Notes under the pieces: model-generated
Database searches by the model: none
What the model was told of the DNA's origin: nothing
The model's input: the letters and a program-made list of their open reading frames with translations, nothing else
Shown: positions 1,641 through 26,743 of the stretch, piece by piece
Layout: the number at the start of each line of letters is the position of its first letter
How positions within the stretch are numbered: position 1 is the stretch's first letter
Source: Kineococcus radiotolerans SRS30216 = ATCC BAA-149
Lineage (GTDB): Bacteria > Actinomycetota > Actinomycetes > Actinomycetales > Kineococcaceae
DNA: 32,000 nt
NCBI RefSeq assembly: GCF_000017305.1
Contig: NC_009664.2
Span: 2,490,001 to 2,522,000 of the forward strand
Direction of reading: 5' to 3'
Translations under genes and position numbers: made by a program

Positions 1641-1809
1641 CATCGATCATCAGTTGATTGCGCGATCCGCGCACCGGGGCTAGCGTGCTTCGTGCGTCCT
1701 GAACGGATCGACGCGCTGCTTTCTGACCAGCACGGCGCCCAGGCAGAGCGACGGTCTCGTCCCGAGATGCGGATGAGCTGTGCGACAGAAGGTCGACGAG
1801 GAGGTCGAA

Positions 1810-3975
1810 GTGGGAGATCTGCTCATCCTCGCCGACGATCTTTCCGGCGCCGCGGAGTCAGCCGCCGCCCTGCGAGTGCGCGGTTCGCGCAGAACGGACC
1901 CGGTCCATGTTGGCTTCTGGCCCACCGACGTCCCAGCGGACGACACCGTCCTCGACCTCCACTGCCGCCACCTGAGCCCTGCCGACGCCGAGCGCCGCGT
2001 CCACGAGGTGCTGGCCGCTGCCCCCGGCCGCACCGTCGTCGCCAAGATCGACAGCCTGCTGCGCGGCAACCTCGTACCCCTCCTGCGCGCCCTGCCCCGC
2101 CCGGTCGTCCTGGCCCCGGCCCTGCCGGTCGCGGGACGCACCGTCGTCGGTGGCCGGGTCCTCGTCGACGGGAACCCGCTGTCCACCACGACCGCTTGGG
2201 CGGCCGAGGGCCGGCCCGCACCGGCGACGGTGGCCGACGCCCTGCCCGGTCTGAGGACCGCTACCGTGCCCTTGGACGTCGTGCGCTCGGCCGGCCTCGC
2301 TGCACACATCGCGCAGGCCCCACCCGGCACGGTCGTCGTCTGCGACGCCGAGACCGACGACGACCTCGACCGCATCGTCACCGCGTCGCCCGGGTGCTTC
2401 CTCGTCGGCTCGGCCGGGTTGGTCGCGGCGGTGGCTCGGGCCCTCCCCGCCGACGGCGACCCCGGTACGACGACGACCCGCCCGTCGCACCACCTCGTCG
2501 TGGTCGTCGGCACCGCGGAACCCACGGCGCAGCACCAGGCCGACCTGCTGGTGCAGATGGGGGCGATCGCGGTCGACCTGCCCTGCGCCGACGTCCTGCG
2601 GGGAACCGTCGACCACCTCACCTGCGCGGTCGCCACGAACCTTCTCACCGTGGTCCGCCTCACCGGCCGCGCCGACGGCCGCGACCTGTCCCGCGCCCTC
2701 GGAAGGACAGTCGCCGACGCCGTCGGTGACGCCGATCTCGTCCTCACCGGCGGGGAGACCGCCCGCCACGTCCTCGACGCTCTGCACGTCCCGTCCCTGC
2801 GCTACGTGGCGCAGATCGAGCACGGCGCCGTCCGCTCCGAGACCCCCGACGGCCGGCACGTCGTCACCCGCCCCGGCAGCTTCGGCGGCCCGGACAGCCT
2901 GCTCCGGATCGTGCGCGCGCTGAACCCCGACCTCCTCCCGCCCCGACCTTCGGAAGGCCTCCCCATGAGCAGCAGCGCGAACCCCGCGATCGCCGTGACC
3001 ATGGGCGACGGGGCCGGGGTCGGCCCCGAGGTCGTCGTCGCCGCACTCCTGCACCCGAGCGTCGTCGAGACCTCCCGCTCCGTCGTCGTCGGCGACGCAG
3101 CCCGGCTGCGCCAGGCCGCGGACGTCCTCGGCGTGGACGCGGAAATCGTCCCGGTGCAGGGGGTCGCGGACGCTGTCTTCGAACCCGGGCGCATCAACGT
3201 CGTCGACCTCGGCCTGCTGCCCGCGGACCTGCCGTGGGGGGAGCTGTCCCCCGTGGCCGGCGACGCGGCCTACCACTACGTGCGGGTCGCCAGCGAGATG
3301 GCGATGCGGGGAGAGGTGCAGGCGATCTGCACCGCCCCGTTGAACAAGGAGGCCCTGCACCTCGGCGGCCACGTCTACCCCGGCCACACCGAACTGCTCG
3401 CCGAGCTCACCAGAACCCCGGAGGTGTCGATGATGCTGTCGACCCCGACGTTGAAGGTCATCCACGTCACCACCCACATCGGCCTGATCGACGCCATCGC
3501 CAAGATCGAACCCGGTCTCGTCGAGCGCACCGTCCGCCGCGGTCACACCGCCCTCGTCGCCGCGGGGAACCCGAACCCCAAGATCGGCGTGTGTGCCATC
3601 AACCCCCATGCCGGGGAGGGCGGGTTGTTCGGCTACGGCGAGGAGGCCGAGAAGATCACCCCGGCGATCGAGGCCCTGCGCGCCGGCGGCATCGACGCCA
3701 TCGGCCCACTGCCCGCCGACACCCTCTTCTTCCTCGCCGGCCGCGGCGACTACGACCTCGTCGTCGCGATGTACCACGACCAGGGCCACGGGCCGGTGAA
3801 GGTCCTCGGCATCGAGGCCGGGGTGAACATCACCGTCGGCCTGCCCGTCATCCGCACCTCCGTCGACCACGGCACCGCCTTCGACATCGCCGGCACGGGC
3901 ACGGTCGATACCCGCAGCATGGTCGAGGCCATGCGGCAGGCCATCGAGGTCGCGCCCCGCCCGACCACGAACTGA
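1810..3975 (+). CDS. fusion protein: four-carbon acid-sugar kinase (DUF1537 / OtnK-DtnK family) N-terminal half plus PdxA-family 4-phospho-(hydroxy)acid dehydrogenase C-terminal half
   Basis: This is a single ORF in the track (1780..3975). GTG 1810 is preferred as the start because GAGGAGG (1798-1804) lies 5 nt upstream. Kinase motifs: LILADDLSGAAE near the N-terminus and LVLTGGETARHVL...TRPGSFGG near the end of the kinase half. PdxA motifs from M at 2965: GDGAGVGPEV, YPGHTELLAE, AMYHDQGHGP, TSVDHGTAFDIAGTG. No stop codon separates the two halves. Confidence 0.8.
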   Translation: MGDLLILADDLSGAAESAAALRVRGSRRTDPVHVGFWPTDVPADDTVLDLHCRHLSPADAERRVHEVLAAAPGRTVVAKIDSLLRGNLVPLLRALPRPVVLAPALPVAGRTVVGGRVLVDGNPLSTTTAWAAEGRPAPATVADALPGLRTATVPLDVVRSAGLAAHIAQAPPGTVVVCDAETDDDLDRIVTASPGCFLVGSAGLVAAVARALPADGDPGTTTTRPSHHLVVVVGTAEPTAQHQADLLVQMGAIAVDLPCADVLRGTVDHLTCAVATNLLTVVRLTGRADGRDLSRALGRTVADAVGDADLVLTGGETARHVLDALHVPSLRYVAQIEHGAVRSETPDGRHVVTRPGSFGGPDSLLRIVRALNPDLLPPRPSEGLPMSSSANPAIAVTMGDGAGVGPEVVVAALLHPSVVETSRSVVVGDAARLRQAADVLGVDAEIVPVQGVADAVFEPGRINVVDLGLLPADLPWGELSPVAGDAAYHYVRVASEMAMRGEVQAICTAPLNKEALHLGGHVYPGHTELLAELTRTPEVSMMLSTPTLKVIHVTTHIGLIDAIAKIEPGLVERTVRRGHTALVAAGNPNPKIGVCAINPHAGEGGLFGYGEEAEKITPAIEALRAGGIDAIGPLPADTLFFLAGRGDYDLVVAMYHDQGHGPVKVLGIEAGVNITVGLPVIRTSVDHGTAFDIAGTGTVDTRSMVEAMRQAIEVAPRPTTN

Positions 3976-3985
3976 CGGGGGACGC

Positions 3986-4774
3986 GTGCCCTCCGCAGCG
4001 ACCGGAACCCGGCGCTCCGCCATCGTCGACCTCGCCCTCGAGGAGGGCCTCGCCCACGTCGAGGCGCTCGCCGCGCGGTTCGAGGTGTCACCCTCGACCA
4101 TCCGCCGCGACCTCGCGATCCTCACCGCCGAGGGGCACATCGCCCGCACCTACGGCGGAGCCATCCCGATCAGCGCGCACTCCGAGACGACGCTGCGCCA
4201 GCGGATGGACGAGGCCCATGGCGCCAAGACCGCGATCGGGCGGTGGGCCGCCACGCAGATCGCCGCCGACGACACCGTCCTGCTCGACGTCGGTTCCACC
4301 GTCGGGGCGCTCGCCGCCGAGCTGCGCGGGGCGCGGGGGCTGACCGTCATCACCGCCAGCCTCACCGTCGTCGGCGCGCTGTCCGACGCCGACGGGGTCA
4401 CCGTCGAGTGCCTCGGCGGCCGGTTGCGCCCCGTCAGCCAGGGATTCCTGGGGCCCCTCACCGAGGCCGCGCTGGAACGGATCAGCGCCGACGCGGTGTT
4501 CCTCGGGACCGACGGGATCTCCGACGAGGGGGAGATCTGCGAAGCGGACCAGCAGCAGGTCCGGCTGAAGGAGCTCATGGCGCGGCGCGCGGACCGCGTC
4601 CACGTGCTCGCGCACGGGGCCAAGCTCGGGGTCCGCCCCTTCCACGCCTGGGTCCGGCTCCCGCTGCCCTGGACGGTCGTCACGGACGCCACCGCCCCGG
4701 CGGAACGCGTCGCGGCGCTGCGGGCGCGGGGCGTGGAAGTCGTCGTCGTCGACGAAACCGTGACCCCCACCTGA
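3986..4774 (+). CDS. DeoR/GlpR-family transcriptional regulator
   Basis: N-terminal HTH (HVEALAARFEVSPSTIRRDLAILTAEGHIARTYGGA) and a C-terminal sugar-phosphate-binding-type domain (LLDVGSTVGALA..., VFLGTDGIS). It starts 10 nt after the kinase-PdxA stop. Confidence 0.85.
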   Translation: MPSAATGTRRSAIVDLALEEGLAHVEALAARFEVSPSTIRRDLAILTAEGHIARTYGGAIPISAHSETTLRQRMDEAHGAKTAIGRWAATQIAADDTVLLDVGSTVGALAAELRGARGLTVITASLTVVGALSDADGVTVECLGGRLRPVSQGFLGPLTEAALERISADAVFLGTDGISDEGEICEADQQQVRLKELMARRADRVHVLAHGAKLGVRPFHAWVRLPLPWTVVTDATAPAERVAALRARGVEVVVVDETVTPT

Positions 4775-4786
4775 CCCGCCGGGCGT

Positions 4787-6505
4787 TCAGCGGGCGCGCG
4801 CCCACTCCTGGAACGCCGCCGCTTCCACCGGCCGCGAGAACAGGTACCCCTGCACGACGTCGCACCCCATCTCGGCGAGCAAGCGCCGCTGCTCCTCCGT
4901 CTCCACACCCTCGGCGACGGTGCGGACCCCGACCGCGCGGGCCAGCTGCACGCACGCCTGCACGATGGCGGTGTCGCTCGCGTTCACCCCGAGGCCGGTG
5001 ACGAACGAGCGGTCGATCTTCAACTCGTCGACGGGGAAGCGCTGCAGGTACGTGAGACTGGCGTACCCGGTGCCGAAGTCGTCGACGGAGACGCCCACGC
5101 CGAGGTCCTTCAACGTCGCCAGCGTCGCCGCCGCCGCGTCGGGATCCACGGCGAGGGCGGTCTCGGTGACCTCCAGGACCAGCAGGTGCGCCGCGAGCCG
5201 GTGACGGGCGAGCGCCCCCGTCACCGCGTCCACGAGACCGGGGTCGGTCAGCTGGCGCGTGGACAGGTTCACCGCGACCTCGACCGTCGCGCACTCCGGG
5301 TCGCGGGCCCAGCGCGCGGCCTGCTCCACGGCCGCGTCCAGCACCCACGCACCGAGTTCACGCACCAGGCCGGACTGCTCGGCGAGGTCGATGAACTCCG
5401 ACGGCGGCAGCAGACCGCGCACGGGGTGCTGCCAGCGCACCAGGGCCTCCACGCCGCTGATCCGTCCGTCGTGCACCCGGACCTGGGGCTGGTGGTGCAG
5501 GCGCAACTGGCCGTCGGGGATGCCGCGGCGCAACTCGCCCAGCAGCCGCAGCCGGTCCGCAGCCCCGTCGTCGGTGCGGGGATCGTGCACCTCGACGCGC
5601 TGCCGGCCCCGGGCCTTGGCCCGCTGCATCGCCACCCCGGCGTCGTGCAGCGCCCGGTCCGCGTGGCCGGGCTCGGGGGCGGCGAGCGCCGCGCCGATGC
5701 TCGCGGAGGTGACGACCTCCAGACCGGCGAGGACGACGGGCGCGGTGAGCTCCTCCAGGAGCCGTTCCGCGAGGGCGCGCGCCGCGTCGAGGTCCTCGCA
5801 GCGGTCGACGACGACGAACTCGTCCGCGGAGGACCGCGCCACGACAGCCCCCTCGCGCACCACCGCGCACAGGCGCTCGGCGACCGTCAGCAGCAGTTCG
5901 TCGCCGGCGGCGACGCCCAGGCTCTCGTTGACGACGGCGAAGTGGTCGAGGTCCACGACGAGGACCCCGACCGAGGTGCCGGTCGCGGACTCCAGGTGCA
6001 CCGACAACCCCGCGCGGTTCGGCAACCCGGTCAGCGGGTCCTGCAGCGCACGACGACGGCTCTCGGTCTCGGCGGCGGCGCGGCGGTCGTCGGACTCCTC
6101 GGCCCGGTGCAGGGCGGCGACGAGTTCCCGCTCGTGCGCGCGCCGCTCCGGCGCGCTGAAGACGACGACGCGCACCTCGTCCGGGACGCCGTCCGTCACG
6201 GGGGCGCGGGTGGCGGTGACGAGCGCCGGACGACGCACGCGGTCCGCGCCGACGATCTCCACGACGACCTCGCTCACGGTCCCCGTCGTGCTGAGCTGGG
6301 GCGCGCTGTGCGTGGACCACAGGATCCGGTCCCCGACGGGCAGCAGCCGGTTGAACGCCGACCCCAGCAGGTCCTCGCGCCGGTGCCCGGACCAGTGCAG
6401 GAACGTGTCGTTGACGCGGGTGACCCGCCCGTCGGCGTCCGTCGTCAGGTACCCGCAGGGGGCCTGCTGGAACAGCGCCTCGAACGCGGACGGGTCGTCG
6501 TTCAC
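4787..6505 (-). CDS. PAS - GGDEF (degenerate) - EAL signalling protein, a predicted c-di-GMP phosphodiesterase
   Basis: The track shows one 910-aa ORF (4787..7519), but only the part from GTG 6505 carries domain signal. PAS: FEALFQQAPCGYLTTDADGRVTRVNDTFLHWSG. GGDEF domain: DPLTGLPNRAG...VVDLDHFAVVNESLG...RSSADEF, with SADEF in place of GGDEF. EAL domain: EALVRW, NLSTRQL, EVTE, DDFGTGYASL, KIDRSF, EGVETEEQ. GTG 6505 overlaps the upstream gene's TGA (GTGA). Confidence 0.85.
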   Translation of the reverse strand: MNDDPSAFEALFQQAPCGYLTTDADGRVTRVNDTFLHWSGHRREDLLGSAFNRLLPVGDRILWSTHSAPQLSTTGTVSEVVVEIVGADRVRRPALVTATRAPVTDGVPDEVRVVVFSAPERRAHERELVAALHRAEESDDRRAAAETESRRRALQDPLTGLPNRAGLSVHLESATGTSVGVLVVDLDHFAVVNESLGVAAGDELLLTVAERLCAVVREGAVVARSSADEFVVVDRCEDLDAARALAERLLEELTAPVVLAGLEVVTSASIGAALAAPEPGHADRALHDAGVAMQRAKARGRQRVEVHDPRTDDGAADRLRLLGELRRGIPDGQLRLHHQPQVRVHDGRISGVEALVRWQHPVRGLLPPSEFIDLAEQSGLVRELGAWVLDAAVEQAARWARDPECATVEVAVNLSTRQLTDPGLVDAVTGALARHRLAAHLLVLEVTETALAVDPDAAAATLATLKDLGVGVSVDDFGTGYASLTYLQRFPVDELKIDRSFVTGLGVNASDTAIVQACVQLARAVGVRTVAEGVETEEQRRLLAEMGCDVVQGYLFSRPVEAAAFQEWARAR

Positions 6506-7350
6506 GCGGAGCGGCGCAGGTGGGCGAGGACCGCGGCGGCGGTCTCGTCGGGGGCGCTGACGTGGGGGCAGTGCCCCGACGCCTGCAGCGCCACCAGCGT
6601 GGCGTGCGGCAGCCGGTCGACGACCTCCTGCACGGCGCTGTCGGGGGCGAGGGCGTCGTCCCGGCACTTGAGGACCAGGGTCGGGGTGGTGACGCGGGTC
6701 AGCAGCTCGCGGGAGTCGGTGTGGAACGTGGCCCGGGCGAAGTCGCGAGCGGTGCCGGGGTGCAGCTGCCGGAACGACTCGGTGAACTCCTCCCCGAGCT
6801 CGGGTCGCTCCGGGTTCCCCATGATCATCGGAGCCACGGTGGCGGTCCAGGACAGGTAGTTGACGTCCAGGGAGTCCAGGAGCTCGGCGACGTCCTCGGT
6901 GGAGAAGCCGCCGTCGTACCCGGTGGCGGGGTCGTCGGTGTAGCGCGCCGACGGGGCGATCATCACCACCTGCGCGAACCGTTCGGGGGCGCGGAGCGCA
7001 GCCCGGGCGGCGATCATGGAACTCACGCTGTGCCCCACGACGACGACGTCGCGCAGGTCCAGCTCCTCGCACAGCTCGACGAGGTCGGCCGCGTACCCGT
7101 CGAGGGTCACGTACTTCTCGCGTTCGTAGGCGGCCGTGTCGAAGCCCCCCGCGCCGGCCAGGTCCAGCAGGACGACGCGGTGCGTGGGCAGGAGGGCGGG
7201 CAGCATTCGGTTCCAGCACTGCTGGTCCGTGCCGAAGCCGTGGACGAGCAGGAGCACCGGACCATCGTCGCGGCCGAGGGAGCGGACGTGGTGACGGGCC
7301 GCCGCGACGCGCGCGACGGTGGTGTCCCCGACGGTGGTGGGAGCAGGCAC
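6502..7350 (-). CDS. alpha/beta-hydrolase of the RsbQ / KAI2 / D14 type
   Basis: Motifs seen: VLLLVHGFGTDQQCWNRMLPALL, nucleophile elbow VVVGHSVSSMIA, acid residue in CRDDALAP, and His in ASGHCPHVSAP. Overall collinearity with RsbQ/KAI2 is as I recall those sequences. The start is refined to GTG 7350 (in frame with track ORF 6502..7542), with GGAAGGA 6 nt upstream. Confidence 0.8.
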   Translation of the reverse strand: MPAPTTVGDTTVARVAAARHHVRSLGRDDGPVLLLVHGFGTDQQCWNRMLPALLPTHRVVLLDLAGAGGFDTAAYEREKYVTLDGYAADLVELCEELDLRDVVVVGHSVSSMIAARAALRAPERFAQVVMIAPSARYTDDPATGYDGGFSTEDVAELLDSLDVNYLSWTATVAPMIMGNPERPELGEEFTESFRQLHPGTARDFARATFHTDSRELLTRVTTPTLVLKCRDDALAPDSAVQEVVDRLPHATLVALQASGHCPHVSAPDETAAAVLAHLRRSA

Positions 7351-7628
7351 GACGAGTCCTTCCGGGAGGTGCCCGGCGCTGGGTCGACGGGTCCATCTCC
7401 TCCTTCGGCAGGTGGACCGGGCGTCTTGAAGCCGCAGGTGCCCGTCCCCGCCGGGGGAATGCCCACGACGCGGGGACGTTGTACTCACTGGCGGCGCTCC
7501 GTACGGCCCCGGGCTCCAAAACCCGTCGCTACGAGCGACCACCGTGCCGTCAGGCGCAGTCGGAGCGTCGCCACCTGACCACTCACTCCCGGCCCCGCCG
7601 GGTCGTCAACCGTCCCCAGGAGGACACC

Positions 7629-7895
7629 GTGAAGGGCGACAGGGTCGAGATCGTCGTGGACGCGAGTGGTGACACCCGCACCTACGAGGTCGAGGCCACC
7701 CGCGCCGGCCGCCGCGTCGACGTGACGCACGGCCGAGGCCTGGTCGAGGTCACCGAGGTCACCCGTGGTGGCACCCCCGTGCGCACGGCCCGGTTCATGG
7801 CCGCGCGCGTCATCGCGCTCGTCGAGCACCCCTCGCCGCGCTCAGCGGCCGAGGACGACGACGAGACCGTGCGTCCGCTGCGCGTCAGCGCCTGA
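7629..7895 (+). CDS. hypothetical small protein (88 aa)
   Basis: GTG 7629 is preceded by AGGAGG (5-nt spacer). Third positions are G/C-rich. A strong terminator hairpin follows. The upstream part of track ORF 7479..7895 lacks coding bias. No family recognised. Confidence 0.5.
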   Translation: MKGDRVEIVVDASGDTRTYEVEATRAGRRVDVTHGRGLVEVTEVTRGGTPVRTARFMAARVIALVEHPSPRSAAEDDDETVRPLRVSA

Positions 7896-7901
7896 GTCGT
7901 A

Positions 7902-7935
7902 CGTCGGTCGGGGTGGTCCGCTACCCCGACCGACG
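7902..7935 (+). terminator. intrinsic terminator hairpin after the 88-aa gene
   Basis: 13-bp perfect stem: CGTCGGTCGGGGT (7902-7914), 8-nt loop, ACCCCGACCGACG (7923-7935). It begins 7 nt after the TGA at 7893-7895. Confidence 0.6.
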
Positions 7936-8061
7936 GGGCTGATCCGGACGAGTGACAGCCGGGACACCGGGCTCAGGGATCGGCTCAGGCCGCCGATGAG
8001 TGGTGTCGGAGCAGGACGCCCGCCCCGGTGAGGGGGTGGCTGCGCAGGGCCCGAGGGCGAT

Positions 8062-8523: not shown

Positions 8524-10049
<1,526 letters not shown>

Positions 10050-10425
10050 AGCATCAACCACACCTCACAGACCACCGGCTCCGTCGTGGGTTGGTGGTGA
10101 GGGTGGGTGGGCCGGTTTCTTCGGACGTACGTTCCGGGGCCGGTGCTCAAGGGTGGAACATCAACACGATTCTTTCTGGCTTCTTCTGCTGTCAGTACCT
10201 CCCGCGTGCGGGAGTGGAACGCGGTGGGGAGTTCGGAAAGGGTCTGGCGCACTGTTGGGTCCTGAGGGACCGGCCGGCAACTCCGTCGAGTGATTGACGG
10301 GGTTGCGGGTGGTTTCTTGGTCTGGGCCTGCCTTGGTCATTCACATCGGCTTGCAGAGGGTTGTCACTTCGGTGGTGCTCTGCGGGTGCTGGTGGTGGTC
10401 GTTAGAGGTGGGTGCGGGTTGTCTG

Positions 10426-10449
10426 TTGAGAACTGCACAGTGGACGCGA
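10426..10449 (+). promoter_or_regulatory. conserved 16S-23S spacer box (BoxA-like)
   Basis: TTGAGAACTGCACAGTGGACGCGA in the ITS, paralogous to the leader box at 8281-8300. Confidence 0.35.
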
Positions 10450-10647
10450 ACATCTTTTAGTAGTGGTGTTCGTCGAGTAGATAATCCTCTGATGATCGGA
10501 CCGTTGCGTCCAGGGGCTCCTTCGTGGGTGTCTGGGTGGGTGGTCCGTGTCTTTGTGGTTTGGGTTCAAGTTTATCGCCTTGACCCGCATTGATCGTTCA
10601 TCGCTGTTCTCGCTTCGGCGGGTGTGTGGTGGTGGGTGGTGTGTGGT

Positions 10648-13799
<3,152 letters not shown>

Positions 13800-13994
13800 C
13801 ACGCACCAGTCACCATCACTGCTGAGCAGTGCGGTGGGGTGTGGGGTTGAGGCGAGTACTTGAACGGTTACGAGATCAAGCACCGCTGCTGGTGTTCGCG
13901 TCCATTGTGTGGTTCTCGGGAGAGAACTCGAACACACCACTCTTGCGCAGACTTTCGTCTGTCGGGGGTGGGGTGTGGTTTGATCCTGACCTTT

Positions 13995-14117
13995 GTGGTC
14001 CGGTGGTCATAGCGGTGGGGAAACGCCCGGTCTCATTCCGAACCCGGAAGCTAAGCCCACCAGCGCCGATGGTACTGCTCGGGAGACTGGGTGGGAGAGT
14101 AGGTCACCGCCGGCCAC
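13995..14117 (+). rRNA. rrf: 5S ribosomal RNA
   Basis: GTGGTCCGGTGGTCATAGCGGTGGGGAAACGCCCGGTCTCATTCCGAACCCGGAAGCTAAGCCCACCAGCGCCGATGGTACTG...GAGAGTAGGTCACCGCCGGCCAC. The terminal helix pairs 5' GTGGTCCGG with 3' CCGGCCAC. Ends are within about 3 nt. Confidence 0.9.
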
Positions 14118-24609: not shown

Positions 24610-25866
24610 GTGGACGAGTTGTCGACGTCGTCGCCGGCGGCGGCCGACGCCGCGGCGCTCACCGCGCGCGCGACCGCCCGCGACGCCACCGCCGTCCGCG
24701 ACCGCGTGGACGTCGCGGTCGCGGCGCTGGAGGGCTGGTACGGCCCCGCCCGGGACGGTTTCTCCGCCCGCGTCTCGCAGGTGCGGGACGAGCTCGACGC
24801 GCTGTCGTCGACCGCGGCGGCCGGGGCGGCGCTGATCGAGGAGCACGCCCGGCGGCTGTCGATGCTGCGCGCGAAGCTGGCGGGGATCGACGCGGAGACC
24901 GCCCGGCTGCAGCGGCGGGTGGACGCCGGCGTCGTCGACCTCGCGGCCTGGCAGGGGGACTGGGCGCAGCTCGAGCGCTGGCAGGACAGCCGGCACCGGG
25001 TGCTGGCGGAGTTCGACCAGGCCACCGAGGAGTTCGCGGCCCGGTTGTTCGCGGTGCTGGACCAGGTCCCGCACCGGCCCCGGCGCCTGGGGGAGCACGT
25101 CGACGACGCCGCGGCGACGGTGGCCGCGTCGGCCGGGGACGCGGCGTTCCTCGCGCTGGGCTGGACCGAGGACGGCCCCGGCTGGCGGGCGGCCTGGCAG
25201 CAGGTGCCGGCCGCCGCGGTGGACGCGGCCACCCACCCCGTGGCCACCCTCGCCGACGCGGTCGCCTGGGACGACTGGACGCAGGGCCGCTACGGCGCGG
25301 GCGCGGCCACGCTGGGGATGGCCGCCGTCGGCCGGGGGATCGGGCGGGGGATCGGGCGGGGCGCTCCGCCGGGCGTGGCGCGCCCGGCGGGACGCCGGTG
25401 GGCGCGCCACCTCGACGCGCGGGGGAACCCGCTCCCGCAGTCGCTGGAGGACCTGCTGGCGGGGGTGGACCTGGAGCGCAGCGAGGTGTTCCCCTCCGCG
25501 CACACGCTGAGCCGGCACGTGGAGGTGGATGATGAGTTCCTGCGGAACCGCCTCAGGACCGGTGAGGTGGAGGGCGGTGCCGTGCGCCGGGCCCCGGACA
25601 CCGTCTCGCGGTGGAAGGACCGGGAGACGGCCGAGGAGGTCGTCACCGCGGCGTTGCGGACCCGCCGGGCCGGCGTCGAGGCCGCGGCGGGCACGGGGGT
25701 GCGCGACGTCCGGGTGGAGGCACCGGCCCCCGCGGACAGCGGGACGATCTGGACGAGGAGCAGCGGTGGCGAAGCGGTCCGCAGGAACCCCTCGAGGGTG
25801 GTCGTGGTCCTGACGCGCGCGGACGACGGGTCGTGGTTCGTGCGCACGTCCTACCTGGAGGTGTGA
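24610..25866 (+). CDS. polymorphic-toxin-like protein: WXG100-like N-terminal helical domain plus C-terminal RNase-A-like (CdiA-CT Y. kristensenii type) toxin domain
   Basis: GTG start with GGGAGGGGGG 5 nt upstream. WXG motif EGWYGPARDGF (W at 24736-24738). C-terminal 123 aa (25495-25863): AHTLSRHVEVDDEFLRNRL...SRWKDRETAEEVVTAAL...RVVVVLTRADDGSWFVRTSYLEV. Domain calls are by motif recollection only. Confidence 0.6.
   Translation: MDELSTSSPAAADAAALTARATARDATAVRDRVDVAVAALEGWYGPARDGFSARVSQVRDELDALSSTAAAGAALIEEHARRLSMLRAKLAGIDAETARLQRRVDAGVVDLAAWQGDWAQLERWQDSRHRVLAEFDQATEEFAARLFAVLDQVPHRPRRLGEHVDDAAATVAASAGDAAFLALGWTEDGPGWRAAWQQVPAAAVDAATHPVATLADAVAWDDWTQGRYGAGAATLGMAAVGRGIGRGIGRGAPPGVARPAGRRWARHLDARGNPLPQSLEDLLAGVDLERSEVFPSAHTLSRHVEVDDEFLRNRLRTGEVEGGAVRRAPDTVSRWKDRETAEEVVTAALRTRRAGVEAAAGTGVRDVRVEAPAPADSGTIWTRSSGGEAVRRNPSRVVVVLTRADDGSWFVRTSYLEV
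25333..25361 (+). repeat. 12-bp tandem repeat (about 2.4 copies) encoding GRGIGRGIGRG in the toxin linker
   Basis: CGGGGGATCGGG (25333-25344), CGGGGGATCGGG (25345-25356), then CGGGG. It is in frame and lies between the N-terminal region and the C-terminal toxin domain. Confidence 0.8.
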
Positions 25867-25867
25867 C

Positions 25868-26743
25868 GTGGGGATCGTGACCTCACCCGTGGCCCACGCC
25901 TACGGCGACGGCGACCCGCGGTTGTGCGCGCGCGACGACCTGGAGTGGGTCCTCACCCACCAGGCCGTCGACCCCGCCCGCGAGCGCGACGCCTGGCGGG
26001 AGGTCCTCCGGGCCGCCCGGGCGGGCGACTACGCGCACGTGGTGCGCACCGCGGGCCGCGTCAACCGGGCCGAACCGCCCGAGGGGAACTCGTGGTCCCG
26101 CTGGGCGCAGTGGGTGGACCTGCGGCTGTCGGAACTGGCCGACGACCCCTCCCGGGTCGTGGACCTCCCCCGCGAGGACGAGCCGTGGCGGCTGCGGGAG
26201 GGGGTCCTGGACCCCGCCGCGCGCGACGTCGTCCAGCGCGCCCTGGCCGCGACGCCGGTGCCGGCGGGGGACTCCCGGCGCGACCACGTCGTCGTCGAAA
26301 CCCCCGCGCCCGTCGGGCTCGCCGTGCGCCTGGACCGCACCACGGGCGACGTCGCGCAGGTCGCGACCGCCCGGCTGGGGGTCGTGCTGGAACGGACCGA
26401 CCGGGTCCGCGTCCTCGGGGTGCACGCCGCGGACGCGGTGGAGGACCCGCGCACGGCGGGGTGGCGGGAGCGGTGGCCGAGCCTGGCCTCCGCCCTGGGG
26501 GGCTGGTTCAGCCAGTCGGGGCTGGGGCGGTACGAGCCGCAGGCGGCGCAGGCGGCCATGCTGCGGCAGGAGAGCGACGAGCGCCTCGAGCGCGTCGCCG
26601 CCGAGGCGGCGGAACTGCTGACCCTCGGCGACGAGGACGTGCGCGCGGTCGTCGTGGCGTTCGGGTGCTGCGTCGAACCGTCCTACCTGCGCTCCTGGCT
26701 GGGGTGGATGGTCTGGCGCATCGGCTACTTCGACTGGAAGTGA
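25868..26743 (+). CDS. putative immunity protein: unknown ~200-aa N-terminal domain plus C-terminal CdiI-like ('CDI system immunity protein') domain
   Basis: The GTG starts 1 nt after the toxin TGA, and GGAGG lies inside the toxin's 3' end, 7 nt upstream. G/C third-position bias runs along the whole ORF. The last ~90 aa are SLASALGGWFSQSG...RVAAEAAELLTLGDED...FGCCVEPSYLRSWLGWMVWRIGYFDW. These resemble the small immunity family I recall with consensus ..LLGAYFHQDW....EI..LL.....LGCYY.P.....WL. Confidence 0.5.
   Translation: MGIVTSPVAHAYGDGDPRLCARDDLEWVLTHQAVDPARERDAWREVLRAARAGDYAHVVRTAGRVNRAEPPEGNSWSRWAQWVDLRLSELADDPSRVVDLPREDEPWRLREGVLDPAARDVVQRALAATPVPAGDSRRDHVVVETPAPVGLAVRLDRTTGDVAQVATARLGVVLERTDRVRVLGVHAADAVEDPRTAGWRERWPSLASALGGWFSQSGLGRYEPQAAQAAMLRQESDERLERVAAEAAELLTLGDEDVRAVVVAFGCCVEPSYLRSWLGWMVWRIGYFDWK

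Follow-up and report, generated by a model that had tools for sequence, protein, structure and literature searches.

Organization of the operon

The DNA analysed here is a 32,000-nucleotide (nt) stretch of the Kineococcus radiotolerans SRS30216 genome (contig NC_009664.2), referred to below as the window. Its minus strand carries a pair of genes, one for an alpha/beta hydrolase resembling RsbQ and the plant receptors KAI2 and D14, and one for a protein with PAS, GGDEF and EAL domains, which we interpret as a probable signalling unit acting on cyclic di-GMP (c-di-GMP). The window is very G+C-rich and contains long spurious open reading frames (ORFs) in every frame; both gene calls, together with the same overlap between them, recur in the public assembly Logan SRR5887161, whose hydrolase is identical. 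The elements of the pair are as follows.

7350..6502, minus strand: gene for the RsbQ/KAI2/D14-family alpha/beta hydrolase (282 amino acids; GTG start, TGA stop at 6504-6502)
6505..4787, minus strand: gene for the PAS-(degenerate GGDEF)-EAL protein, a predicted c-di-GMP phosphodiesterase (572 amino acids; GTG start)
7363..7357, minus strand: ribosome-binding site GGAAGGA, read from the sequence, with a 6-nt spacer to the hydrolase GTG
6502..6505, minus strand: GTGA overlap between the hydrolase TGA and the downstream GTG (4 nt; TCAC on the plus strand)

As the initial annotation of this DNA had stated, the coding strand reads GTGA at the junction, so that stop and start share 4 nt. No Shine-Dalgarno-like purine run is found in the 20 nt before the second GTG (...CACCTGCGCCGCTCCGC, directly followed by GTG). 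Because the 4-nt overlap and the missing Shine-Dalgarno sequence fit a coupling by termination and reinitiation, the two genes are probably translationally coupled in this way.

Family, fold and catalytic triad of the hydrolase

Pfam assigns the hydrolase to generic alpha/beta-hydrolase families only, and no NCBIfam model reaches its cut-off, the sub-threshold matches being to PcaD, BioH and BchO-type enzymes. A phmmer search against all PDB sequences is more specific. The top match is Bacillus subtilis RsbQ (1wom), with an E-value of 7e-70 over about 260 aligned residues at about 40% identity, followed by Oleispira Olei00960 and about 55 KAI2, D14, HTL and DAD2 chains at 1e-50 to 1e-37. Beyond this set the scores fall to 1e-19 or worse, leaving a gap of 18 orders of magnitude to generic esterases. 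The AlphaFold2 model of the hydrolase has a predicted local distance difference test (pLDDT) score of 93.3 and a four-helix cap at residues 151-210 (helices 151-163, 165-177, 183-194 and 198-210). Its best Foldseek matches are again RsbQ (1wom/1wpr), with template-modelling (TM) scores of 0.92-0.96 and root-mean-square deviations of 1.4-1.5 Å (0.92/0.95 and 1.4 Å for 1wom), and then KAI2 and D14, at a TM score of about 0.88. Thus, by sequence and by predicted structure alike, the protein clusters with RsbQ, KAI2 and D14 and not with generic esterases, and the family first proposed for it is confirmed: it is a member of the RsbQ/KAI2/D14 (DKR) family.

The codons of the catalytic triad lie at the following positions.

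7027-7029, minus strand: Ser108, aligned to RsbQ Ser96
6655-6657, minus strand: Asp232, aligned to RsbQ Asp219
6571-6573, minus strand: His260, aligned to RsbQ His247

The strings GHSVS, CRDDALAP and GHCPHVSAP, from which an apparently intact Ser-Asp-His triad had been read, are all found in the protein, and the alignment with RsbQ upholds that reading. The triad is invariant across 32 homologues. The pocket residues F27, Y125 and L144, described as common to Firmicute RsbQ and eu-KAI2 (Melville et al. 2023 preprint), are also kept. The position equivalent to RsbQ F197, which occludes the pocket, is occupied by His; among the aligned homologues it is L, R, T, H or Q, and it varies even within Kineococcus.

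More than 3800 homologues of the hydrolase are found at E<=1e-20. The best named relatives are all from Kineococcus (72-84% identity). Many homologues, including a K. radiotolerans orthologue of 76% identity, are named 'sigma-B regulation protein RsbQ' by JGI/UniRef, while PGAP-style names are of the generic form 'alpha/beta fold hydrolase'. The ligand of bacterial RsbQ-type sensors had been described as unknown. This still applies to the endogenous ligand, but not to synthetic butenolides: RsbQ binds and hydrolyses GR24 and dGR24, its catalytic His becomes covalently modified, and both compounds inhibit RsbQ signalling (Melville et al. 2023 preprint).

The PAS domain and the linker helix

The PAS-GGDEF-EAL architecture attributed to the 572-residue protein is recovered by Pfam, with PAS at residues 8-105 (4e-07), GGDEF at 153-303 (1e-29) and EAL at 324-559 (3e-74). 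Its parts are:

6155..6493, minus strand: N-terminal RsbP-type PAS domain, residues 5-117, which aligns end to end with the PAS domain of RsbP from B. subtilis (E 2e-13)
6044..6151, minus strand: PAS-GGDEF linker, a single predicted helix of 36 residues (119-154), from DSSP on the AlphaFold2 model
5597..6049, minus strand: degenerate GGDEF domain, residues 153-303, with the signature SADEF at residues 226-230 (nt 5816-5830)
4829..5536, minus strand: EAL domain, residues 324-559, with all catalytic motifs present and EALxR at residues 353-357

The residues characteristic of the RsbP-PAS class are, in RsbP numbering, C10, L13, L48, Q53 (basic), F55 (hydrophobic), C56 (aromatic), Y59 (H/Y), P62, E72 and P86 (PMC3183031). 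At the corresponding positions the window protein has C17, L20, L55, R60, L62, W63, H66, P69, E79 and P93, all ten of which fall within the class consensus, and these ten columns are conserved across 38 partner proteins. The motif APCG is located at residues 15-18 (residues 8-11 in RsbP). No DIT motif is present at the C-terminal end of the domain, which reads ...VRVVVFSAPERRAHERELV (family consensus VFDAxxRRAYExELL), and the PDB holds no solved relative of this type of PAS domain better than E 0.06.

In the AlphaFold2 model of the protein (pLDDT 88.4), the PAS and GGDEF domains are joined by the single helix listed above. The length of this helix is identical, without insertions or deletions, in all 8 actinobacterial GGDEF-EAL orthologues. 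For comparison, a coiled-coil linker of at least 21 residues was predicted in 36 of 45 proteins of the class, some GGDEF-EAL members being without one (PMC3183031).

Predicted activity of the GGDEF and EAL domains

The two output domains differ in the state of their motifs. The GGDEF domain has SADEF as its signature, Ala in place of the Lys of DxDxFKxxN (DLDHFAVVN), REGA where the RxxD I-site would be, and no His in the GH motif. All 7 Kineococcus proteins share SADEF, and the one from Aquipuribacter reads GADEF. Both are alleles that were engineered to inactivate the cyclase in a study of Vibrio fischeri, where the change from SGDEF to SADEF substantially cut the effects of the protein (PMC10402110). 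Among proteins with the same PAS class, those with a short linker to GGDEF(-EAL) carry non-canonical signatures (AGDEF, SGDEF, SGDAF, TADEL or SADEF), whereas the GGDEF-only proteins keep GGDEF or GGEEF. The EAL domain, by contrast, retains EALVR, VNLS, LEVTE, DDFGTGYAS, KIDRSF, EGVET and VQGY, all of them conserved in the orthologues.

The nearest solved relatives of the PAS-GGDEF-EAL protein are the GGDEF-EAL phosphodiesterases MorA (9e-89), MucR and DosP. The best-scoring relatives also include DibA and the PdeR-like PRK10060; in NCBIfam, LapD, FimX and CsrD score weakly. With a cyclase-dead allele in the GGDEF domain and no catalytic motif of the EAL domain impaired, the protein most likely works as a c-di-GMP phosphodiesterase only. 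Of the c-di-GMP turnover that had been suggested as the output, the motifs thus favor degradation; synthesis by the degenerate GGDEF domain is improbable.

Conservation of the hydrolase-PAS pairing

The conservation of the pairing was assessed in a scan of one genome per species, which yielded 40 loci from Actinomycetota, Proteobacteria and Verrucomicrobiota. Downstream sequence is available for 39 loci, and in 37 of them the gene after the hydrolase opens with a PAS domain homologous to that of the window (E 1e-62 to 3e-4). The remaining two only seem to differ: they are copies with a frameshift in which the PAS domain is still encoded, bringing the total to 39 of 40; the sole locus without a downstream PAS domain is a short Ramlibacter contig. 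Of 39 related loci, about 26 share the NTGA overlap of stop and start codons, and a further 4 have an overlap of 1 or 8 nt. The gene pairing is therefore conserved in related genomes, as had been anticipated, and this holds whatever the output domain.

A natural hydrolase-PAS fusion was considered and rejected. The locus of Streptacidiphilus sp. 4-A2 (L030, 6001-6781) resembles a fusion, since the reading frame continues, but the hydrolase is frameshifted and the PAS gene still lies downstream; in Streptomyces glaucosporus (L013, 6897-7240) it is the PAS gene that is frameshifted, and this is no fusion either. These frameshifts may be either pseudogenes or assembly errors.

Considering the window protein and 37 downstream proteins from related loci, 15 carry a SpoIIE/PPM phosphatase, about 12 a histidine kinase and 10 GGDEF plus EAL. 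Searched exhaustively with HMMER, the PAS region matched 1424 cluster representatives at E<=1e-10. A Pfam census of 102 proteins, namely that of the window and the 101 top PAS matches, counted 31 with SpoIIE/PPM, 19 with GGDEF (9 of these with EAL) and 16 with HisKA. The description of hydrolase plus PAS as a bipartite module attached to various outputs is borne out by these PPM, histidine kinase and GGDEF-EAL members, which are as reported by Nadezhdin, Brody and Price (2011; PMC3183031) in a catalogue of 45 RsbQ-PAS pairs with three output classes, including three cyclases with a C-terminal EAL domain.

Separately, 2 of the 102 proteins with an RsbP-type PAS domain carry an adenylate/guanylate cyclase domain (PF00211). 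They would constitute a fourth output class, absent from the 2011 catalogue.

A candidate sigma-28 promoter upstream of the hydrolase gene

A scan of positions 4600-7950 for sigma-70 promoters and intrinsic terminators returned no match. The published queries for the sigma-28 factors WhiG and FliA are T(A/C)AA-N16-GCCGA and CTCA-N16-17-GCCGA at no more than 200 bp upstream of a start codon (PMC12871210), and one such site precedes the hydrolase gene:

7429..7405, minus strand: predicted sigma-28 (FliA/WhiG-type) promoter, TCAAG-N15-GCCGA, equivalent to T(A/C)AA-N16-GCCGA; a consensus match

About 51 nt separate the end of the -10 element, GCCGAAGG, from the hydrolase GTG. The motif is unique in the window, where 0.04 (strict) or 0.20 (loose, T[AC]AA-N16-GCCGA) occurrences are expected by chance. 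CTCAAG-N15-GCCGA is found upstream of the hydrolase gene in all 6 Kineococcus loci, and the Aquipuribacter locus (L033) has CTCA-N17-GCCGAACC. A sigma-28-type motif thus precedes 8 of 8 actinobacterial GGDEF-EAL operons, on the correct strand and less than 200 nt from the start codon, and 0 of the 31 other loci, with PPM, kinase or proteobacterial GGDEF-EAL outputs. The intergenic DNA upstream of the hydrolase gene is poorly conserved among Kineococcus species, being too diverged for alignment by blastn.

This distribution, 8 of 8 against 0 of 31, suggests that the operon belongs to the sigma-28 regulon and may be co-expressed with motility genes. Among the predicted WhiG targets in Actinomycetota, genes for diguanylate cyclases and phosphodiesterases are the most widespread, with feedback loops implied (PMC12871210, 2026 preprint). 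In K. radiotolerans, fliA lies within a motility island and no FlgM is recognisable; this zoospore-forming organism acquires flagella and motility only in response to soil extract or certain carbon sources, with no cue identified (PMC2587704).

Proposed mechanism and alternative explanations

Taken together, these data lead us to propose, with fairly good confidence, that the two genes form a translationally coupled signalling operon, probably driven by sigma-28, that belongs to the RsbQ-PAS bipartite modules and gates a c-di-GMP phosphodiesterase. The hydrolase would bind, and probably hydrolyse, a small hydrophobic ligand by means of Ser108, Asp232 and His260 under the four-helix cap. Once in its signalling state, it would dock onto a dimeric partner, touching the N-terminal RsbP-type PAS domain and the first part of the 36-residue linker helix. 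The resulting change would travel down the helix to the cyclase-dead GGDEF domain and the catalytically complete EAL domain, and the output would be a changed c-di-GMP phosphodiesterase activity. Transcription is probably from the sigma-28 (FliA/WhiG-type) promoter, in which case the phosphodiesterase would be made alongside the motility programme, and c-di-GMP would be lowered when the hydrolase is engaged. While the families of both proteins, their conserved pairing, the state of their motifs and the conservation of the promoter-like motif are observed directly, ligand binding, direct contact between hydrolase and PAS domain, the direction of regulation, phosphodiesterase activity and use of the promoter are all inferred. 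The contact finds a precedent in RsbQ, which touches the RsbP PAS domain through F55 of its F-alpha helix; the F55A substitution abolishes both interaction and signalling (PMC3183031). An AlphaFold2 model of two RsbP and two RsbQ chains likewise places RsbQ on the PAS domain and the linker, and it was proposed that partner binding controls the linker and hence whether the effector domains dimerise (Bradshaw and colleagues, eLife 2025, PMC12143880).

Several points weigh against this interpretation. The PAS alignment and numbering depend on the correctness of the RsbP reference sequence used, which reproduces all ten residue numbers of the 2011 study. The linker, rich in Ala and charged residues and with no clear hydrophobic heptad, is a candidate rather than an evident canonical coiled coil, and the AlphaFold2 model of the PAS-GGDEF-EAL protein is a monomer with a low predicted TM score (0.51). 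A single genus supplies seven of the eight promoter matches, so that about two independent lineages are represented. Our literature search found no characterised RsbQ-PAS-GGDEF-EAL pair. Lastly, a non-canonical GGDEF domain is occasionally active, as SGDEF appeared to be functional in V. fischeri VF_A0057 (PMC10402110), and the SADEF domain might therefore keep some residual cyclase or GTP-sensing activity.

The alternatives concern different parts of the proposal and are of unequal weight. That the two genes are adjacent by coincidence, the hydrolase being a metabolic esterase or lactonase unrelated to the signalling gene, could appeal to the PcaD, BioH and BchO-type matches and to the generic PGAP-style names. 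None of these matches reaches its cut-off, however, and one specific class of PAS domain accompanies the hydrolase in 39 of 40 loci from several phyla, the stop and start codons of the two genes overlapping in most cases; because of these conservation data we regard a coincidence as effectively refuted. More plausible, though we hold it unlikely, is that the hydrolase acts through its chemistry, its product or a transferred group serving as the ligand or cofactor of a PAS domain that would be the real sensor. The invariant triad would suit such a hand-off, as would the distinctive conserved F-alpha helix of this PAS class, which could line a pocket. Against it stand the physical interaction of RsbQ with the RsbP PAS domain, lost together with signalling in F55A (PMC3183031), and the D14 and KAI2 relatives, which signal through a conformational change of the hydrolase itself. 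As for the promoter, it is a real, if lesser, possibility that TCAAG-N15-GCCGA is the site of another regulator or a lineage-specific conserved sequence, and that the operon is transcribed from elsewhere. After GCCGA the -10 region diverges (AAGG, CAC, TGC or GAC rather than TAA), the small number of independent lineages leaves room for this view, and the sigma-70 consensus scan found nothing either way. Yet the element agrees exactly with the published definition, including the spacing and the invariant CGA, is kept on the right strand in all eight operons although the DNA around it has diverged, and in Aquipuribacter is a near-perfect match to the WhiG1 consensus CTCA-N17-GCCGAAC.

With regard to the output, the SADEF domain might keep its cyclase activity, so that the module would gate c-di-GMP synthesis or a switch between cyclase and phosphodiesterase. 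The 2011 catalogue classed such outputs as diguanylate cyclases (PMC3183031), certain non-canonical motifs, SGDEF among them, seem to retain activity, and the domain is well conserved overall, as its Pfam E-value indicates. We nevertheless find this improbable: the second Gly is replaced to give the exact knock-out allele that was engineered elsewhere (or its GADEF counterpart in Aquipuribacter), the Lys of DxDxFK, the His of GH and the RxxD I-site are missing, and the non-canonical state marks the short-linker PAS-GGDEF-EAL lineage and not its GGDEF-only relatives. It is also possible to regard the EAL protein mainly as a c-di-GMP-binding effector, or as a trigger enzyme acting via a partner, rather than as a bulk phosphodiesterase. 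Many GGDEF-EAL proteins are indeed non-catalytic, among them LapD, FimX and CsrD, but it is these that match the protein weakly, whereas the best-scoring relatives (DibA, PdeR-like PRK10060, DosP, MorA and MucR) are active phosphodiesterases; since all the catalytic and metal-binding motifs of the EAL domain are intact as well, such a role appears quite improbable.

A more specific extension of the phosphodiesterase-gating proposal can be imagined, in which the operon senses the cue for Kineococcus motility: a butenolide-like molecule from soil or plants would engage the hydrolase, the EAL domain would be switched on, and c-di-GMP would fall, permitting the motile state or fixing the cells in it. 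We offer this as a speculation with little probability behind it. Since the operon itself would be in the FliA/WhiG regulon, such a circuit would form a feed-forward or positive-feedback loop. Should the idea prove right, bacteria would possess an equivalent of karrikin/strigolactone perception that is read out directly through a second messenger.

Neighbouring genes

The genes flanking the operon, one on either side, are:

7629..7895, plus strand: gene for an 88-residue protein without a Pfam match, divergent from the hydrolase gene
3986-4774, plus strand: convergent DeoR regulator gene, 12 nt from the downstream end of the operon

The 88-residue gene is the upstream neighbour in all six Kineococcus loci (87-91% identity), whose outer flanks are not syntenic, and it was considered as a third component of the module. 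We do not count it as such, because it belongs to a very large actinobacterial family, has unrelated neighbours elsewhere and is separated from the operon by an insertion in one species. The family comprises about 8000 homologues, all labelled 'hypothetical', with no conserved neighbours outside Kineococcus; identity to the 88-residue protein is 98% in K. radiotolerans and 76-86% in Geodermatophilus, Blastococcus, Cryptosporangium and Naasia, a range of 76-98% across genera, and the neighbours in Geodermatophilus and Cryptosporangium are unrelated to the module. In K. vitellinus (L003, about 4800-5900), an opposite-strand gene of about 1.1 kb is inserted between the 88-residue gene and the hydrolase promoter, and the sigma-28-type motif stays beside the hydrolase despite this insertion.

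The leader of the 88-residue gene, at 7489-7628, is conserved as DNA in loci L003, L004 and L006, and not in L001, L002 and L005. It contains a short palindrome, GTCGCTCGTAGCGAC on the minus strand and GTCGC...GCGAC in the others, which could be an operator or a hairpin in the 5' untranslated region. In Kineococcus gypseus (L006, about 1000-2230), a second GGDEF-EAL paralogue is found a few kb upstream of the block formed by the small-protein, hydrolase and phosphodiesterase genes.

On the other side, the DeoR gene is preceded by an ORF of 731 amino acids (1780-3975, plus strand; 721 amino acids in the public gene call), in which a DUF1537-type four-carbon acid-sugar kinase (SBD_N and NBD_C) is fused to a PdxA-family dehydrogenase. 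This looks like a fused catabolic unit of the threonate/erythronate type. Neither the DeoR gene nor the kinase-PdxA fusion adjoins the pair in any related locus, and both were rejected as parts of the module. Beyond the 88-residue gene lies a complete ribosomal RNA operon (8525-14115, plus strand; 16S 8525-10043, 23S 10648-13799, 5S 13999-14115), which is missing from the matching position in the other Kineococcus loci. Further along the window, an ORF of 418 amino acids (24610-25866, plus strand) carries at its C terminus a bacterial CdiA-CT RNase A-like toxin domain (PF18431, E 4e-12), and the ORF directly downstream of it (25868-26743; 291 amino acids, no Pfam match) could encode the immunity protein of this toxin.

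Significance and comparison with known systems

The evidence supports well the view that the pair is a new example of a class described in 2011 rather than something categorically new. What the present analysis adds to the initial annotation is the output predicted to be phosphodiesterase only, the single helix of fixed length between the PAS and output domains, and the conserved sigma-28-type promoter match. In our literature search, RsbQ and c-di-GMP occurred together only in PMC3183031 and in one unrelated paper, and no member with a c-di-GMP output had been tested. The pair is of interest because the endogenous ligands of bacterial RsbQ-type sensors are unknown, as is that of plant KAI2 (presumed, KL). 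The read-out available in B. subtilis, a phosphatase with a partner-switching cascade, is awkward to reconstitute, whereas ligands could be screened in a simple in vitro assay with a pair whose output is a single-enzyme reaction, the conversion of c-di-GMP to pGpG. The pair would also allow the signalling of the hydrolase through the PAS domain and linker helix to be dissected. In addition, the sigma-28-type match would link the sensor to the circuits of motility and c-di-GMP that are being mapped in Actinomycetota. Because the promoter is followed first by the hydrolase gene, regulon surveys that annotate only that gene would miss the link to c-di-GMP.

The GGDEF and GGDEF-EAL modules of the 2011 catalogue share with the window pair the gene order, the most N-terminal position of the PAS class and outputs related to c-di-GMP. 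The output was treated there as a diguanylate cyclase, whereas in the window protein, with its SADEF signature, only the EAL domain looks active. In Psychromonas A1SX34, the only example of this kind that the text of PMC3183031 describes, and in the two betaproteobacterial loci of the present scan a second PAS domain is inserted, where the window protein has one 36-residue helix. Kineococcus is not named in the accessible portions of the text and supplement of that study (PMC3183031).

Caulobacter PdeA (CC3396) is described, as cited in PMC12871210, as an EAL phosphodiesterase with a degenerate GGDEF domain that is activated by GTP (Christen et al. 2005). It has the same architecture of PAS, degenerate GGDEF and active EAL, and by this likeness the degenerate GGDEF domain of the window protein may be regulatory (GTP-binding); PdeA differs in having no hydrolase partner and a PAS domain of another class, and the Lys that contacts GTP is missing in the window protein. 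A connection of such enzymes with motility sigma factors also has parallels. The Escherichia coli phosphodiesterase PdeH (YhjH) is FliA-dependent. In PdeH, in the actinobacterial WhiG-dependent cyclase and phosphodiesterase genes (PMC8325347, PMC12871210) and in the window, a phosphodiesterase gene lies behind a sigma-28-type match; the difference is that the window phosphodiesterase would additionally be gated by an RsbQ-type hydrolase, whose gene comes first after the promoter.

A close counterpart is the RsbQ-RsbP energy-stress module of B. subtilis. The hydrolases share about 40% identity, the triad and the four-helix cap, the hydrolase gene lies directly upstream of the PAS gene, and a long helix follows the PAS domain. 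In RsbP, however, the PAS domain is attached to a PPM phosphatase acting on RsbV and sigma-B, and here to a degenerate GGDEF and an EAL domain; RsbQ F197 is replaced by His in the window hydrolase; and a sigma-28-type promoter is predicted here, while the sources consulted report none for rsbQP. The plant receptors KAI2 and D14, in turn, resemble the window hydrolase in fold, triad, cap and the pocket residues F27, Y125 and L144 (E 1e-50 to 1e-37, TM about 0.88). Their partner is an F-box protein (MAX2/D3) with SMXL substrates, whereas the partner encoded here is a PAS-domain enzyme.

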